Shown piece by piece: positions 1,333 to 58,865 of a stretch of DNA of 64,000 nt. The notes under the pieces were generated by a model. That model was not told the DNA's origin and did no database searches. It saw only the letters and a program-made list of their open reading frames with translations. The stretch comes from an uncultured Actinomycetota bacterium (GTDB lineage Bacteria > Actinomycetota > Actinomycetes > JAHEKZ01). The position numbers and the translations under genes were made by a program. The DNA lies in contig CAWHIJ010000003.1 of the NCBI GenBank assembly GCA_963829525.1, forward strand, positions 1,408,001 through 1,472,000. The letters are read 5' to 3'. How positions within the stretch are numbered: the stretch's first letter is position 1; each line of letters opens with the position of its first letter.

Positions 1333-4068
1333 TCAGGCGTCGCCCATACCTGCGCCCGGGTCGGCGGCTCGAGGGTCGTCGAGACGATACCGGTCGAAGG
1401 CTTCCTTGACAGTCTCTCGCTTGATCTCGCCTCGGCGGGCGAGTTCTTGCAGGGTTCGCACCGTAATGGCCTCGGCGTCAATGCGGAAGTGTCGCCGAAG
1501 TGCTCCGCGGGTGTCCGACAAACCGAAGCCGTCGGTACCGAGGGTGACGTAGTCGCCCGGGACCCATGGGCGAATCAGCTCTTGTACGGCTCGCTGGTAG
1601 TCCGAGACGGCAACGACGGGGCCCTGGACGTCACCAAGTCGTCTTGTCACGTAGGCGATCTGCGGCTCAGACGCAGGGGAGAGAAGATTGGAATCGTCGG
1701 CTCTCAGCCCGTCACGGTGCAGCTCAACCCACGACGTGACAGACCAGACATCGGCGGCGACACCCCAGTCATCAGCGAGCAGTTCTTGGGCGCGCAAGGC
1801 CGCTGGCATCGCGGACCCGCTGGCCAACAGGTGCGCCCGCGTCTCGGACTCGTTAACGGCTGGGCGGTACAAGTGAAGTCCGCGAAGCAGACCGTCGACG
1901 TCGAGATCATCTGGTTCTGCTGGCTGGTCAATCGGCTCGTTGTACATCGTCAGGTAGTAGAAAATGTTCTCTGAGTTCTCGCCGTACATGCGGCGAAGGC
2001 CGTCGCGGACGATGTGCCCGATCTCGAATGCAAATGCGGGGTCGTAGGAGAGCACCGCAGGGTTGGTGGCAGCGATCAGGTGCGAGTGGCCGTCCTCGTG
2101 CTGTAGGCCCTCGCCATTCAGCGTGGTGCGCCCTGCTGTAGCCCCGATGAGGAACCCCCGGGTCATCTGGTCGGCGGCAGCCCAGAGCGAGTCGGCTGTG
2201 CGCTGGAACCCGAACATCGAGTAGAAGATGTAGATCGGGATCATCGGTTCGTCATGTGTGGAGTAAGAGCTGCCGGCTGCGATGAAGGATGACACCGAAC
2301 CCGCTTCGTTGATGCCCTGGTGCAGCAGCTGACCGTCGGTGGCCTCCTTGTACGACAACATCAGCTCGCGGTCGACGGACACGTACGTCTGTCCGTTCGG
2401 GTTGTAGATCTTCTGCACAGGGAACATTGCATCCATACCGAAGGTTCGTGCCTCGTCCGGGATGATCGGCACGATTCGGTGACCGATTTCGGGGTCCTTG
2501 AGGAGGTCTTTCAGTAGCCGGACAAAGGCCATCGTGGTGGCCACCTGCTGCTTGCCCGAACCACGTTTGGCTGCGCTGTAGGCGGACTCGCCAGGTAGCA
2601 CGAGCGGTCGGCTGGCATTGCGCCGCTTGGGCAGATGACCGCCCAGTGCCTGTCGGCGTTCCTGCAGATAGCCGGTGACATCGCTGTCTTTGTCAGGCCG
2701 GTAGTAGGGCGGCAGCTTGGCGTCGATCTGGTCATCCTCGATCGGAATCTTCAACCGGTCTCGGAAGCCCTTGAGATCTTCGAGGGTGAGCTTCTTCATC
2801 TGGTGCGTCGAGTTACGTCCTTCGAAGTGCGACCCGAGGGTCCAACCCTTGATGGTCTTGGCCAGGACCACCGTGGGCTGACCCTTGTGCTCGATGGCGG
2901 ACTGGTAGGCGGCGTGCAGTTTGCGATGGTCGTGCCCACCACGCTGGAGCGCCCAGATCTCGTCGTCGGTCCACTCCTCGACCATCTTCCGGGTTCGTGG
3001 GTCGCGACCGAAGAAATGCTCCCGGACGAAGGCGCCGTTCTCGGACTTGTACGTCTGGAAGTCGCCATCGGGAGTCGCGTTCATGACGTTCACGAGAGCG
3101 CCGGCGGAGTCCTGGGCCAGCAGGGGATCCCAACTGCGGCCCCAGATGACCTTGATGACGTTCCACCCCGCACCGCGGAAGAATGCCTCGAGCTCTTGGA
3201 TGATCTTGCCGTTGCCGCGGACGGGACCGTCCAAGCGCTGCAGGTTGCAGTTGATGACGAAGGTCAGGTTGTCGAGCTCTTCGCGCGCGGCGAGCCCGAT
3301 CGACCCGAGTGACTCGACTTCGTCCATCTCGCCATCGCCGAGAAATGCCCACACGTGCTGGTCGGAGGTGTCTTTGATCCCACGGTTGTGGAGGTAACGG
3401 TTGAACTGGGCCTGGTAGATGGCGTTGATCGGCCCCAGCCCCATCGACACCGTCGGGAACTGCCAGAAGTCTGGCATCAGGCGGGGGTGCGGGTAAGAGG
3501 GTAGACCTCCGCCAGGGTGTGACAACTCTTGCCTGAAGCCGTCCATCCGGTCTTCGTCGAGGCGTCCCTCGAGGAAGGCCCGGGCGTAGATCCCAGGGGA
3601 GGCGTGGCCTTGGATGTAGATCTGGTCACCGCCCCCGGGGTGGTCGCCACCCCGGAAGAAGTGGTTGAAGCCGACCTCGTAGAGCGAGGCGCTTGAGGCG
3701 TATGTCGAAATGTGTCCGCCCACGCCAACCCCCGGGCGTTGGGCGCGGTGCACCATGATCGCGGCGTTCCAACGCATGTAGGCGCGAAGCCGCCGTTCGA
3801 CCCACTCGTCACCGGGGAACCACGGCTCCTGCTCGGGTGTGATCGTGTTGATGTAATCGGTGGTGGTCAGTGACGGGACGCCGACATTCCGCTGACGCGC
3901 CCGCTGCAACAGGCTGAGCATGAGGTACCTGGCGCGGTAAGCCCCCTGACCATCAATGACGTCATCGAGGGAGTCGCGCCACTCCTGGGTCTCCTCGGGG
4001 TCGACGTCGACGAGCTGGGTAGGTAGGCCGCCGCTGATCAGGGGTTCGCGCTCGCGTCCTGTGTTCAC
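1333..4068 (-). CDS. aceE: Pyruvate dehydrogenase E1 component, homodimeric type
   Basis: 911 aa; [30 protein letters not shown], ThDP motif GDGEMDE...[20 protein letters not shown]. Confidence 0.98.
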
Positions 4069-6338: not shown

Positions 6339-6411
6339 GGGCGTATAGCTCAGTTGGTAGAGCTCCGGTCTTACAAACCGGCGGTCGGGGGTTCAAGTCC
6401 CTCTGCGCCCA
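6339..6411 (+). tRNA. tRNA-Val (anticodon TAC)
   Basis: GGGCGTA acceptor pairing with TGCGCCC, D arm AGCTCAGTTGGTAGAGC, anticodon arm CCGGT-CTTACAA-ACCGG, T arm GGGGGTTCAAGTCCCTC; followed by CCG, so CCA is not fully encoded. Confidence 0.97.
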
Positions 6412-12653: not shown

Positions 12654-13055
12654 GCGAGCGAGTTGGCCGGGCGGCCGCGGTCGGCGGGAAACCGTCGATC
12701 GAGGAAAGTCCGGGCTCCACAGGGCAAGGTGGTGGGTAACGCCCACCCGGGGCGACCCGCGGGACAGTGCCACAGAAAACAGACCGCCGTCCGGTCCGCC
12801 GGACGGTAAGGGTGAAACGGTGGTGTAAGAGACCACCAGCGCGGCAGGTGACTGCAGCGGCTCGGTAAACCCCACCTGGAGCAAGGTCAAGAGGCGCCGG
12901 TTTTGGCCGGTGCTGCGCAGGCGTTCGAGGACGGCCCGTCCGAGCCTGCGGGTAGACCGCATGAGGTCGTCGGCAACGGCGGCCCCAGATGGATGGTCGC
13001 CCCGTGTGCCGAAAGGTGCACGGACAGAACCCGGCTTACAGGCCAACTCGCTCGC
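12654..13055 (+). ncRNA. rnpB: RNase P RNA, bacterial class A
   Basis: GAGGAAAGTCCGGGCTCC, AGTGCCACAGAAAA, GGTAAACCCCACCTGGAGCAAG, ACAGAACCCGGCTTA; terminal helix GCGAGCGAGTTGGCC / GGCCAACTCGCTCGC. Confidence 0.98.
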
Positions 13056-18191: not shown

Positions 18192-18893
18192 ATGGATGAG
18201 CGTGTCGGTATCAAGAGTCAAGCGCCGATGTCTGGCAGGCCGAGCATGATCGGGGTGATCGGCGGAACCGGTGCTTTGGGGCGCGGCCTGGCGTCCCGTC
18301 TTGCCGCGGCTGGGCATCAGGTGAGGATCGGTTCCCGCGACCCGAATCGTGCTGAAGAAGCTGCAGCTCTTCTCGACGAACGGATCACGGGAGCCTCCAA
18401 CGCCGAGGTCTGTGCCAGTGACCTGGTCGTCATTGCCGTTCCGTGGCCGGCGCATGAGCAGACGATTATGCAGCTAAGGGATGAGCTCGACGGGCGCATC
18501 GTGATCGACTGCGTGAACCCTCTCGGGTTTGACGAGCGCGGTCCATACGCGCTCACCGTCGACGCTGGGAGCGTCGCCCAGCAGGCGCAACGGCTGCTCC
18601 CGAATAGCACGGTTGTCGGCGCGTTTCACCACGTCTCGGCAGAGCTCCTGCTGGATGGTGGAGATTTGGACACCGATGTGCTCGTGCTCGGAGATGATCG
18701 CGGTGCTGTCGATCAGGTCATAGCACTGGCGGACAGCATCACAGGGCTGCGTGGAGTCTTCGCAGGGCGACTTCGCAACGTCGGGCAGGTGGAGGCCCTC
18801 ACCGCGAACTTGATCGCCGTCAACCGTCGCTATCGGGTGCAGTCTGGGATCAGAGTGGCTGGACTTCCGCCCCTCTCAGGTCCCGCTCACTGA
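18192..18893 (+). CDS. npdG: NADPH-dependent F420 reductase
   Basis: IGVIGGTGALGRGLA, IGSR, IDCVNPLGFD, VVGAFHHVSA, QVEALTANLIAVNRRY; start could also be 18246. Confidence 0.9.
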   Translation: MDERVGIKSQAPMSGRPSMIGVIGGTGALGRGLASRLAAAGHQVRIGSRDPNRAEEAAALLDERITGASNAEVCASDLVVIAVPWPAHEQTIMQLRDELDGRIVIDCVNPLGFDERGPYALTVDAGSVAQQAQRLLPNSTVVGAFHHVSAELLLDGGDLDTDVLVLGDDRGAVDQVIALADSITGLRGVFAGRLRNVGQVEALTANLIAVNRRYRVQSGIRVAGLPPLSGPAH

Positions 18894-19765
18894 TAAGACT
18901 GCTCAGCTGAGGGGTAGTTGCCGCTCACAACGTCATCAGACCAGGTACGTACCGCATCGGAGATGACCGAGCGGACGTCCCCATAGGAGCGGACGAACTT
19001 CGGGCGCGGGGTAGGCGTAAGTCCGACGAGGTCCTGCCACACGTTCACCTGCGCATCGCAGCCGTTGCCCGCCCCGATCCCAATCGTCGGAATGGAAAGT
19101 GCATCGGTAACGCGCTGTGCCAGCTCAGCGGGCACGACCTCGAGAACGACGGCGAACGCGCCTGCTGCCTCGAGCGACTTGGCGTCTCGCAGTAGTCGCT
19201 CACCCGAGCCGCCGCGTCCCTGGACGCGGTAACCGCCCAGAGCGTTGATCGACTGTGGGGTCAAACCCAGATGACCCATGACGGGGATGCCGGCGCCAAC
19301 CAGTGCCTCAACCTGAGGCACGATTCGCTGGCCGCCCTCGAGTTTGACAGCGTGCGCACCCCCCTCTTTGAGGAATCGGGCAGCCTGAGCAAGTGCTTGG
19401 TCGGGCGAGGCCTGGTAGCTGCCGAACGGCATGTCGGCCACCACCAGAGCACGCTGTGTTGATCTCGCGACGGCGGCGACCAACGGGACCAACTCGTCCA
19501 TGGTGATGGGGATCGTCGTCTCATAGCCGTAGACCACATTGGCTGCGGAGTCTCCGACCAGCAGCACTGGAATGCCGACTTCGTCAAAAAGCCGGGCGGT
19601 CATCGCGTCGTACGCGGTGAGCATCGGCCAACGCTCGCCGCGCTGCTTGGCACTCGCCAAGTCGTGCAGCGTCACACGCCCTGATCTGGTCGCACCGTAG
19701 AGTCGTGGGCTGTCGGCGCCGGTCGATGGACGGTCTGAGCCTGGAGATTGGACGGTGGGGGTCAT
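18887..19765 (-). CDS. panB: 3-methyl-2-oxobutanoate hydroxymethyltransferase
   Basis: MLTAYD, LLVGDS, VVADMPFGSY, AVKLEGG, GHLGLTPQS, PTIGIGAG; SD GAAGGGA. Confidence 0.97.
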   Translation of the reverse strand: MTPTVQSPGSDRPSTGADSPRLYGATRSGRVTLHDLASAKQRGERWPMLTAYDAMTARLFDEVGIPVLLVGDSAANVVYGYETTIPITMDELVPLVAAVARSTQRALVVADMPFGSYQASPDQALAQAARFLKEGGAHAVKLEGGQRIVPQVEALVGAGIPVMGHLGLTPQSINALGGYRVQGRGGSGERLLRDAKSLEAAGAFAVVLEVVPAELAQRVTDALSIPTIGIGAGNGCDAQVNVWQDLVGLTPTPRPKFVRSYGDVRSVISDAVRTWSDDVVSGNYPSAEQSYQ

Positions 19766-19779
19766 CTCGTATCCCTTCG

Positions 19780-19805
19780 CCTCGAGGCCATGTGTGGTCC
19801 CCGGA
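19780..19805 (-). promoter_or_regulatory. Candidate cis-regulatory RNA hairpin (pan-motif-like) in the panB 5' leader
   Basis: UC-CGGGG-A-CCA-CACA-UGG-CCUCG-A-GG: a stem with one bulged A on each strand, ending 1 nt before the SD. Confidence 0.5.
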
Positions 19806-19813
19806 CTGCTCTC

Positions 19814-21466
19814 ATGGTGACACCACGAGGGGCAGAACCCAAACATCCGGGCAGGGGCGACTTTTGGGACCCGGCTGACCACGGTGGAGAGGGGCACCCC
19901 CGGCGGTGGGCGATCCTTGGGGTGCTCCTGGTGAGCCTGTTGATCGTCGTTCTGGACAACACGGTGCTCAACATTGCTCTCCCCACCATCCAGCGCGACC
20001 TGTCGGCAACGCCGGGAGAGCTCGTCTGGGCCGTAGACGCCTACATCTTGGCCTTTGCGGCGCTGCTCTTCACCTGGGGAGTACTTGGCGACAAGTACGG
20101 GCGCCGGCGCATTCTGCTGATCGGCCTGACTCTCTTTGCCGTCGCTTCAGCCATCTGTGCCTTCTCGGTAAACGCCCACATGCTGATCGCGTTCCGCGCG
20201 GTCATGGGCGTGGGTGGTGCCGCCGTCCTGCCGGTGACGCTCGCGATCATCACCGTGATCTTCCCCCGAGAGGAGCGCGGAAAGGCGATCGGCACTTGGG
20301 CGGGGGCAGTCGGTGGCGCGGTAGCGCTGGGGCCGGTTCTCGGGGGACTTCTGCTCGAGCACCCGGAGTGGTCAGAGTGGCTGACCGGGAACGCCTGGGG
20401 GTCGGTCTTCTTGATCAATGTGCCGATCATCGCGATCGGGATCTTCGGGATCATCCGCGTCGTTCCAGAGACGCGCAACCCCAACCCGCGCCGTCTTGAT
20501 GTCACTGGTCTCGTTGTCTCGGCAGTTGGGTTGTTCTCGCTGGTCTTCGGCATCATCCACGCAAGTGAAGCCGGCACCTGGCTCGATCCGATGGTGTTGG
20601 GCCCCATTGCGGCGGGAGTTGCGATCCTCACGGTCTTTGTCGTGATGGAAGCCCGCAGCGACCATGCGTCATTCGATGTCTCGTTGTTCGGCAGTCGCGG
20701 ATTCTCGGTCAGCCTCGCCGCCATGAGCCTGGCGTTCTTCGCTCTCTCCGGCATCACATTCACGCTGCCATTCTTCCTTCAGGTACTGCGGGGCTACGAC
20801 ACTCTGCAGGCTGGTTTGTGCTTCATCCCGTTCGCCGTTGGACAGCTGCTCGCGGCCCCGCGCAGCGCCACAGTTGTCGCACGCTTCGGCTACCGGCCGG
20901 TCATGACGATCGGGCTGATCGTGGTGGGGGGTGCATGTCTGGGTATCGCTGCCATGGACGTGAAGACACCGCTCTGGGTGATCTTGACGGTGTTCTTCGC
21001 CTTCGGCTTCGGTATGGGTAACGTCATGGCTCCGGCGTCGACGCTGATCCAGAACTCGTTGCCACTGGCGCAGGCAGGAGCGGGCTCCGCTGTCTCCAAC
21101 ACCGTCCGCCAGATTGGCGGCGCCCTCGGAGTGGCCGTTATCGGGACCCTGCTGGCGACGACCTACGCGGCCGCCGCCCGCGAGACTCTCGCGGAACTTC
21201 CCGACCAGGCCCGTGCCACGGCGTCGACGTCGATCGTGGCGACAGACGTGGTTCTCGACGCCGCCATCGACGCCGGCCTTCCGGCAGGACAGGCCGAAGT
21301 ACTCAGGGCCGCTGCCTACCAGGACTTCCTCGATGCAACACAGCTCACTTCGCTGATCTCGGCGGGGATCGTCGCGCTGGCAGCACTGGTCGTGATCCTC
21401 TTCCTTCCCACCATCACGCCGCCTGAGCACGTGAAGCAGAAGGCGGCCGCCGATCCCGGGCCTTAG
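19814..21466 (+). CDS. DHA2 (EmrB/QacA-type) MFS efflux transporter
   Basis: LDNTVLNIALPTI, WAVDAYIL, GVLGDKYGRRR, GPVLGGLL, WGSVFLINVPI; start uncertain. Confidence 0.92.
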   Translation: MVTPRGAEPKHPGRGDFWDPADHGGEGHPRRWAILGVLLVSLLIVVLDNTVLNIALPTIQRDLSATPGELVWAVDAYILAFAALLFTWGVLGDKYGRRRILLIGLTLFAVASAICAFSVNAHMLIAFRAVMGVGGAAVLPVTLAIITVIFPREERGKAIGTWAGAVGGAVALGPVLGGLLLEHPEWSEWLTGNAWGSVFLINVPIIAIGIFGIIRVVPETRNPNPRRLDVTGLVVSAVGLFSLVFGIIHASEAGTWLDPMVLGPIAAGVAILTVFVVMEARSDHASFDVSLFGSRGFSVSLAAMSLAFFALSGITFTLPFFLQVLRGYDTLQAGLCFIPFAVGQLLAAPRSATVVARFGYRPVMTIGLIVVGGACLGIAAMDVKTPLWVILTVFFAFGFGMGNVMAPASTLIQNSLPLAQAGAGSAVSNTVRQIGGALGVAVIGTLLATTYAAAARETLAELPDQARATASTSIVATDVVLDAAIDAGLPAGQAEVLRAAAYQDFLDATQLTSLISAGIVALAALVVILFLPTITPPEHVKQKAAADPGP

Positions 21467-57932: not shown

Positions 57933-58865
57933 TCACTGCCGCGAGTCTCTGGCGTCGATGGCCTGTTGGTAGAGGCGTCCGGCACGGTAGGACGACCGCA
58001 CCAACGGGCCGCTCATCACCGCGACGATGCCGCGGTCGATGGCCTCCCGACCCAGCGCGTCGAACTCTTCGGGCGTGACCCATCGCGATATGGGGTGATG
58101 CCGCTCGCTCGGCCGCAGGTACTGGGTGATCGTGAGCAGCTCGCATCCGGCGACGACAAGCTGGTCAATCGCCTCGAGGATCTCGCTCGGCTCCTCGCCG
58201 AGGCCCAGGATGAGGTTCGACTTGGTGACCATTCCCGCTTCGCGAGCGGCGGTGATGACGTCCAACGACCTCTGGTAGCGAAAGCCCGGACGGATGCTGC
58301 GAAAGATACGAGGGACGGTCTCGACGTTGTGAGCCAACACCTGCGGGGCAGACGCAAACACCTGCGCAAGTAGTTCGGGGTCACCGGAGAAGTCGGGGAT
58401 CAGCAGCTCGACGCCGGTGTCGGGGTTGAGCGCGTGGATCTGGCGCACGGTCTCGGCGTAGAGCCAGGCGCCCTCGTCAGCGAGGTCGTCGCGTGCGACG
58501 CCGGTGACGGTGGCGTACCGGAGGTTCATGGTGCGGACGCTCTCGGCCACGCGCAGGGGCTCGCCGGCGTCCAGCGGCTCAGGCCTGCCGGTGTCGATCT
58601 GGCAGAAGTCGCAACGGCGCGTGCACTGGTCACCGCCGATCAGGAAGGTGGCCTCGCGGTCTTCCCAGCACTCGAAGATGTTGGGGCACCCCGCTGCTTC
58701 GCAGACGGTGTGCAGGCCTTCGTCCTTGACGAGTTTCTTGATCTGCTGGTACTCCGGGCCGGTCCTGAGCTTGGTCTTGATCCACGGGGGCTTACGCTCG
58801 ATTGGCGTCTCGGCATTGCGCGCCTCGATGCGGAGTAGCTTTCGACCCTCGGGAAGGACGGTCAT
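57933..58865 (-). CDS. lipA: Lipoyl synthase
   Basis: [40 protein letters not shown]. Confidence 0.98.

Follow-up and report, generated by a model that had tools for sequence, protein, structure and literature searches.

A conserved double-bulged RNA hairpin resembling the pan motif abuts the panB Shine-Dalgarno sequence in actinobacteria

Results

The panB locus and its leader hairpin

We analysed a 64-kb stretch of DNA (64,000 nucleotides; hereafter the window) from an uncultured Actinomycetota bacterium, in which panB is encoded on the minus strand (Table 1). The predicted product is PanB by its matches to Pfam PF02548 (E 1.2e-108) and to the NCBIfam models NF001452 (382 bits) and TIGR00222 (305 bits). 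The panB leader reads 5'-UCCGGGGACCAcacaUGGCCUCGAGG-C-GAAGGGA-UACGAG-AUG, with its U at position 19805 and the A of the ATG at 19765; given as minus-strand positions 19805-19763 (5' to 3'), the sequence is UCCGGGGACCACACAUGGCCUCGAGG-C-GAAGGGA-UACGAG-AUG. The gene content of the window matches a conserved actinomycete neighbourhood, and no panC, panD or coa genes are present within the 64 kb. A divergent DHA2-family MFS efflux gene has candidate starts at ATG 19790, ATG 19814 and GTG 19817, which fall within the leader of panB or its predicted -10 box, and the control regions of panB and the MFS gene must therefore overlap.

Table 1. Positions of the panB leader elements and of other features in the window.
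Feature	Position	Strand	Remarks
panB CDS (3-methyl-2-oxobutanoate hydroxymethyltransferase)	18887..19765; ATG 19763-19765	-	Pfam and NCBIfam matches
SD-like GAAGGGA	19772..19778	-	Starts right after the last hairpin pair; ends 6 nt before the ATG
Pan-type hairpin GUC-CGGGG-A-CCA-caca-UGG-CCUCG-A-GGC	19779..19806	-	3 bp, 5 bp, 3-bp inner stem, 4-nt loop; leave-one-out covariance model, covariation, minimum free energy (MFE) fold
3'-strand bulged adenosine (alignment column 33)	19782	-	Invariant; corresponds in the Rfam pan consensus to the unpaired base preceding the final 3 pairs
Conserved 5-bp core, 3' strand (CCUCG)	19783..19787	-	Alignment and pair counts
5'-strand bulged adenosine (alignment column 11)	19798	-	Invariant; corresponds in the Rfam pan consensus to the unpaired base that follows 8 pairs
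Conserved 5-bp core, 5' strand (CGGGG)	19799..19803	-	Pairs with 19783-19787; central G19801.U19785 wobble
Predicted extended -10 element TG-u-CACCAT	19814..19822	-	TGn-NANNNT box; 7 nt from hexamer end to hairpin base
DHA2-family MFS efflux gene	19790-21466	+	TIGR00711, 266.9 bits
tRNA	6339-6411	+	73.3 bits
Bacterial RNase P RNA, class A	12659-13054	+	313.9 bits
Window genes, part 1			PPK2, aceE, RNase H/phosphatase, yaaA, map, npdG (F420 reductase), panB, MFS, otsA
Window genes, part 2			GH15 trehalase-like, otsB, nadE, SURF1, two glnA-type genes, tdh-kbl, lipA, lipB, MmpL

A preliminary description of this leader proposed a 10-bp stem with one bulged A on each strand and a CACA loop, adjoining the Shine-Dalgarno sequence (SD), and the sequence agrees with it throughout. 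Among the ten pairs are one G.U inside the stem and a U.G that closes it; comparison across loci supplies an eleventh pair, G19806-C19779, and the hairpin base directly abuts the SD, with GAAGGGA beginning at the next nucleotide. When positions 19766-19805 are folded alone, the stem has 8 bp and the 5' bulge only (-10.3 kcal/mol, z = -0.85), and 38 of 200 shuffled sequences fold equally well. Folding from the predicted 5' end (19807) yields the full 11-bp double-bulged hairpin as both the MFE and the centroid structure, and in the wider context of 19740-19900 (161 nt) the fold is no better than that of shuffled sequences (z = +0.84). The evidence that the hairpin is more than a chance structure comes from comparison across loci and not from thermodynamics.

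A separate hairpin, GGGUCCCAAAAG...UGUUUGGGUUC (19815-19891, minus strand), lies upstream of the predicted panB promoter and opposite the 5' part of the MFS open reading frame, and shows no folding significance. A mir-191 match to the same interval (15.7 bits, E 1.1) was discarded as noise.

A family of panB leader hairpins in actinobacteria

A search of genome contigs with PanB gave at least 80 loci, the best match listed being 69% identical to the window PanB; the locus set comprises the matches listed and lacks close relatives of the window organism. Forty-three of these were taken as actinobacterial, either from the source record or from PanB similarity. Within the 140 nt upstream of the panB starts, many of the listed loci carry the pattern CCGGGGA-C-[variable stem-loop]-G-CCUCGAG, with the SD a few nucleotides farther on. 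A permissive regular expression covering the hairpin arms gave 80 matches in the window by itself and was dropped; narrower patterns close to panB, and after them covariance models, took its place. Model R1 was built from an alignment of 21 distinct instances (A1) and searched against the window and the 80 listed loci (580 kb, both strands, E up to 10). It returned 25 matches of 27-47 bits, one per source, all of them immediately upstream of panB and on the panB strand. The next match scored 23.3 bits, in a Dehalococcoidia locus (L039), and the remaining ones scored 16.4 bits or less.

To remove the circularity of searching the window with a model that includes it, we made a leave-one-out model (R2) from the 20 other panB leaders (alignment A2). 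With filters off and both strands of the 64-kb window searched, R2 placed its best match at 19776-19808 on the minus strand, with 37.3 bits and an E-value of 1.5e-7. The second-best match in the window, at 58143-58183 on the plus strand (18.2 bits, E 0.018), is antisense within lipA and is probably noise.

At the R1 threshold of 27 bits the element is thus present in the window and in 24 of the 43 actinobacterial loci among the matches listed, which represent Streptomyces, Streptosporangiales, Pseudonocardiales and Glycomycetales as well as metagenome-assembled genomes (MAGs) of Frankiales, Mycobacteriales and Nanopelagicaceae. R1 does not find it in the other 19 of the 43, which include all Micrococcales-type loci, Nitriliruptoria, Gaiellaceae and several MAGs among the matches listed; panB can therefore do without the element. 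In the Micrococcales-type loci panB directly follows a gene whose end resembles NAD synthetase, and nadE is also near panB in the window. In five loci without the pan-type hairpin, four of them from Microbacteriaceae (L032, L034, L038 and L074) and one from an unclassified Actinomycetota MAG (L036), panB follows, at a distance of up to about 40 nt, a gene whose product has the C-terminus ...EWKRRQGA.GPK..., which we take to be nadE; loss of the element here accompanies loss of panB's own promoter.

Several further observations were made in these loci. A Mycobacteriales MAG (L007:2938-2985, plus strand) has a degenerate copy, UCCCGGGAC...CCUCGGAGG, which carries an insertion of about 7 nt in its 3' part and overlaps the SD; R1 gives it no score at E up to 10. 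A second actinobacterial subtype has the same geometry and another core: L028:882-908 (plus strand) reads UGG-CGUCA-A-CCA-cag-UGG-UGGCG-A-CCA, followed directly by GGGAGG, with the ATG 14 nt later. L019 (about 1435-1465) and L023 (about 2935-2965) have similar GGCGCCAAC...GGUGGCG(A/C)CCA arrangements beside the SD, L023 without the 3' bulged A. A Nanopelagicaceae MAG has a SAM-IV riboswitch (L027:995-1108, minus strand; 105.1 bits) at a distance of about 2 kb from panB.

Conservation and covariation

Both bulged adenosines (columns 11 and 33) are invariant in all 21 distinct sequences of A1, as are C5, C12, G27 and G34, and about 16 nucleotides of the helix show more sequence conservation than pairing would require. 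The seeds of A1 were chosen by a pattern that required conserved arms, which biases the outer-pair counts towards the structure; the inner-stem pairs and pair 4-35 were unconstrained by it. Pair 4-35 is UA in 10 sequences, CG in 8, UG in 2 and GC in 1, and is never unpaired, and pair 13-26 is GC in 10, CG in 7, UA in 2 and GU in 1. The core varies less: columns 6-32 are CG in 20 and UA in 1, columns 7-31 GC in 20 and AU in 1, columns 9-29 GC in 18 and GU in 3, and columns 10-28 GC in 19 with two others. The central core pair, columns 8-30, is a GU wobble in 17 sequences, CG in one (Nanopelagicaceae), GC in one and unpaired in two. The loop shows no conservation (CACA, GCAC, ACAG, GUCAG, GAAC and others).

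With the structure extended by one pair, 92.4% of 249 cells are paired, as against 32-48% when the partners are slid by 1-3 columns. Eight of the 12 pairs show compensatory changes on both sides, and none of 500 shuffles reaches any of the five measures used; given the relatedness of the sequences, among them six almost identical Streptomyces leaders, the changes in A1 are not independent events. RNAalifold independently gave the same double-bulged fold; it has 11 pairs, 7 of them compensatory. The preliminary description had made its reading depend on conservation and covariation of the stem and bulged adenosines in other panB leaders, and on both counts (21/21 and 8/12) the outcome is favourable. 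The hairpin is a real, widely conserved actinobacterial RNA element.

Comparison with the pan RNA motif

In its 2010 description (Weinberg 2010; PMC2864571) the pan motif is a stem with two conserved bulged adenosines, mostly in tandem, that lies upstream of panB, of panC or of genes encoding aspartate decarboxylase; Table 1 of that paper lists it for Chloroflexi, Firmicutes and delta-Proteobacteria and scores it '?', not 'no', as a riboswitch. Its authors suggested a dimeric protein ligand, given the simplicity of the motif and its tandem arrangement. The preliminary description had presented pan as a bulged-A stem before pantothenate genes in three phyla and a proposed site of protein binding, which agrees with that account.

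The two elements share their place upstream of panB, two conserved bulged adenosines (A19798 and A19782 in the window) and an identical geometry: an outer helix of 3 bp, the bulged A of the 3' strand, a helix of 5 bp, the bulged A of the 5' strand, and then an inner stem (2-3 pairs in the pan consensus, 3-6 in the actinobacterial element) and a loop. The spacing between the bulges is 5 bp in both. The Rfam pan consensus is '<<<<<<<<-<<______>>>>>>>->>>' twice, ending in unpaired AaGG, and the actinobacterial consensus is '((((((((.((((..))))))))).)))' followed by the SD. A purine-rich SD adjoins the proximal hairpin in each case, and the distance from the hairpin end to the ATG is about 18 nt in a Lachnospiraceae control locus (L052) compared with 12-19 nt in the actinobacterial leaders. 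The differences lie in the pair after the 5' bulge (U-A in pan, C-G here) and in the core. The actinobacterial core, C-CGGGG-A-C ... G-CCUCG-A-G with its central G.U, is much more conserved, and the corresponding pan sequences are gcgGU-A-U / A-ACcgc-A or CCUgG-A-U / A-CcGGG-A. Unlike pan, the actinobacterial element is GC-rich, and unlike the mostly tandem pan it is single, with one R1 match per locus and one R2 match in the window. Its hosts are Actinomycetota, outside the three phyla in the published pan table (PMC2864571).

Detection by the curated model is a different matter. The Rfam pan model (RF01749) found no match at E up to 10 in the window leader (19600-20000) and none in L025 (2900-3000). 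At the gathering score (36.2 bits) it found none in the whole window, in 20 motif-bearing loci or in ten non-actinobacterial panB loci. The control locus L052 has a tandem pan RNA of 36.1 bits (E 6.8e-5), 0.1 bit under the gathering score, and Dehalococcoidia L039 has a tandem pan RNA by the Rfam model at 22.9 bits (E 0.097). The models are not reciprocal: Rfam pan misses the actinobacterial element and R1 misses the Firmicutes control L052. A bridge is provided by the first hairpin of L039 (C-CGGCG-A-C ... G-CGUCG-A-G), which is matched both by R1 (23.3 bits) and by Rfam pan. Since the Rfam model fails to detect it, we regard the element as a variant of pan and do not class it as a member on the curated test. 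The proposal of a single-hairpin actinobacterial pan version thus stands as regards conservation, covariation, architecture and a single R1 match per locus, and falls short as regards recognition by the Rfam model. The pan-like identity of the element is strongly supported by sequence comparison, through conservation, covariation, position and shared geometry.

An earlier report bears on this distribution. Mobius et al. (2015; PMC4607514) obtained a 'pan-like sequence' in Mycobacterium avium subsp. paratuberculosis from an Rfam 11 search and described it as the family's first discovery in Actinobacteria, 'if truly pan-like'; the match is reported there, in the text available, without comparative analysis, covariation or a neighbouring gene. 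Beyond this remark we found no account of an actinobacterial panB leader RNA in the literature, and pan matches are also listed in two Firmicutes transcriptome papers, one of them PMC5670726.

Pan-geometry hairpins were also seen before panB in a Polyangia MAG (L049:2929-2962, plus strand), a delta-proteobacterial MAG (L068:2918-2948 and 2984-3013, plus strand) and an Acidobacteriaceae MAG (L072:2920-2949, plus strand), Acidobacteriota not being a listed pan phylum. These candidates come from an architecture-only descriptor with a high background (201 matches in 1.16 Mb) and serve as pointers only; none of the three loci has a match at the Rfam pan gathering score.

Predicted position of the hairpin in the panB transcript

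Across the family, 0-12 nt separate the hairpin base from the SD. Between the end of the hairpin and the start codon there are 12-19 nt in 19 of 21 leaders and 27 nt in the other two. In the window and in 13 of the 24 other loci a TGn-NANNNT box precedes the hairpin base by 6-9 nt, and in 2 more it does so by 15 nt; six of the 24 have a NANNNT hexamer without the TG, and three have no box. A generic sigma-70 scan of 19600-20100 found no promoter. As the -10-like hexamer in the window ends 7 nt before the hairpin base, the transcription start site (TSS) is predicted at about 19806-19808. Conservation of this box suggests that the hairpin forms the 5' end of the panB mRNA, with a leader of 40-50 nt.

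Of the 21 predicted transcripts, 15 have the hairpin as their MFE structure, 2 form it in part and 4 lack it. We saw no consistent alternative fold that sequesters the SD in these predicted leaders; the mean unpaired probability of the SD window ranges from 0.13 to 0.58 with no consistent pattern. For want of a consistent SD pairing pattern in these 21 leaders, an intrinsic switch was judged unlikely. An attenuator or terminator was rejected, the terminator scan of 19600-20100 being empty and no U tract following the hairpin.

Discussion

Alternative explanations for the panB hairpin

The hairpin probably controls the amount of PanB. Explanations that dispense with an RNA function fare poorly. 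A functionless chance hairpin in GC-rich DNA would fit the unremarkable folding energy of the isolated window sequence (z = -0.85, with 38/200 shuffles as good) and the frequency with which the architecture-only descriptor finds matches (201 in 1.16 Mb), but it is refuted by the leave-one-out covariance model (E 1.5e-7) and by 24 further instances at the same place among the loci listed, with covariation, and we give it practically no weight. Nor do we think it at all likely that the inverted repeat is a DNA operator bound by a transcription factor controlling panB, the divergent MFS efflux gene or both. Counted from the predicted panB promoter, the repeat does occupy roughly +1 to +28, the divergent intergenic region that contains it is short, the MFS candidate ATG 19814 is only 48 nt from the panB ATG, and CCTCGAGG is a palindrome. 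Against this, the sequence of the inner stem varies yet stays complementary, the G.U pair (17/21) would be a mismatch between DNA half-sites, all 25 R1 matches are on the panB sense strand, and the arms, put out of register by the two bulges, have no dyad symmetry.

Two explanations at the RNA level have to be weighed more seriously. The 5'-terminal stabiliser stem-loops of bacterial mRNAs are not known to have conserved bulges, a core sequence or a gene-specific association; like them, the panB hairpin would be at the extreme 5' end of its transcript if the predicted TSS is right. It might accordingly do no more than guard the panB mRNA from 5'-end-dependent RNases or set constitutive translation, with no sensing, which would suit a predicted TSS 0-2 nt from the hairpin base and a hairpin that is the MFE structure in 15/21 leaders and leaves the SD partly free. 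A stable stem would suffice for that purpose, yet two destabilising bulged adenosines are invariant, the core sequence and G.U wobble are kept across orders, and the same geometry recurs before pan genes of other phyla; we consider this explanation unlikely, and slightly more so than the next. The hairpin might instead be a minimal riboswitch, in which a pantothenate/CoA-pathway metabolite held in a pocket of the two bulged adenosines and the G.U core alters access to the SD. Such a switch, in our estimate possible but unlikely, would account for the conservation of about 16 helix nucleotides beyond pairing needs and for the constant association of R1 matches with a vitamin-biosynthesis gene; a helix with only two bulges could form a small-ligand pocket, no candidate protein is known, and pan was scored '?' rather than 'no' in the published table (PMC2864571). 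It is opposed by the presence of only one helix, by a loop without conservation, which makes a pseudoknot unlikely, by the lack of a conserved alternative SD-sequestering fold in the 21 predicted leaders, and by the preference of the pan authors for a dimeric protein (PMC2864571). The more specific proposal that the 28-36-nt hairpin is the whole sensor, a minimal pantothenate/CoA-metabolite riboswitch representing the monomeric core of a pan class that is tandem elsewhere, we regard as distinctly improbable.

A model for control of panB

The reading that we favour, and think reasonably probable, is that the hairpin is a single-hairpin actinobacterial variant of pan at the 5' end of the panB mRNA, bound by a trans-acting factor that gates ribosome access according to pantothenate/CoA status. 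It would be a cis-acting structured RNA at, or a few nucleotides from, the mRNA 5' end, whose fixed helix geometry (the bulges, the 5-bp CGGGG/CCUCG core and a variable inner stem and loop) would serve as the recognition site. A trans-acting factor is favoured because no conserved fold hides the SD, the hairpin is mostly the MFE structure, the loop is unconserved and the invariant nucleotides are the bulges and their flanking pairs. The factor would most probably be a protein, although we know of no RNA-binding regulator of pantothenate genes. It could be a dimer on one hairpin, since both core strands read C-N3-G-A and so have partial two-fold symmetry. With the hairpin base 0-12 nt from the SD and 12-19 nt from the start codon, occupancy would be expected to block or modulate 30S binding, and possibly also 5'-end-dependent decay. 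PanB synthesis would thereby be coupled to pantothenate/CoA status, and translational feedback on panB, as judged from sequence, is plausible.

The MS2/R17 coat-protein operator offers a model for this possible mode of action, with no sequence or family relationship: it is a small hairpin at a ribosome-binding site in which a bulged A is essential and bound protein blocks initiation. Unlike that operator, the panB element has two bulges and leaves the SD outside the helix.

Implications for the pan class

We found no published function or partner of the pan motif since its description in 2010. As a pan-like element the actinobacterial hairpin would add a fourth phylum to the class, and its single copy, its core of 16 nearly invariant nucleotides and its constant spacing to the start codon define a minimal recognition unit, which would be a clean bait for pull-downs or ligand screens. 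The curated Rfam model misses a large part of the class, namely the actinobacterial type, the second actinobacterial subtype and probably the Myxococcota and Acidobacteriota examples, and genome annotations therefore under-report it. Control of pantothenate/CoA synthesis in actinomycetes is relevant to the antibiotic-producing Streptomyces, and the pantothenate pathway is a drug and vaccine target in mycobacteria. Should the riboswitch explanation prove true, the hairpin would be the first vitamin B5/CoA riboswitch.
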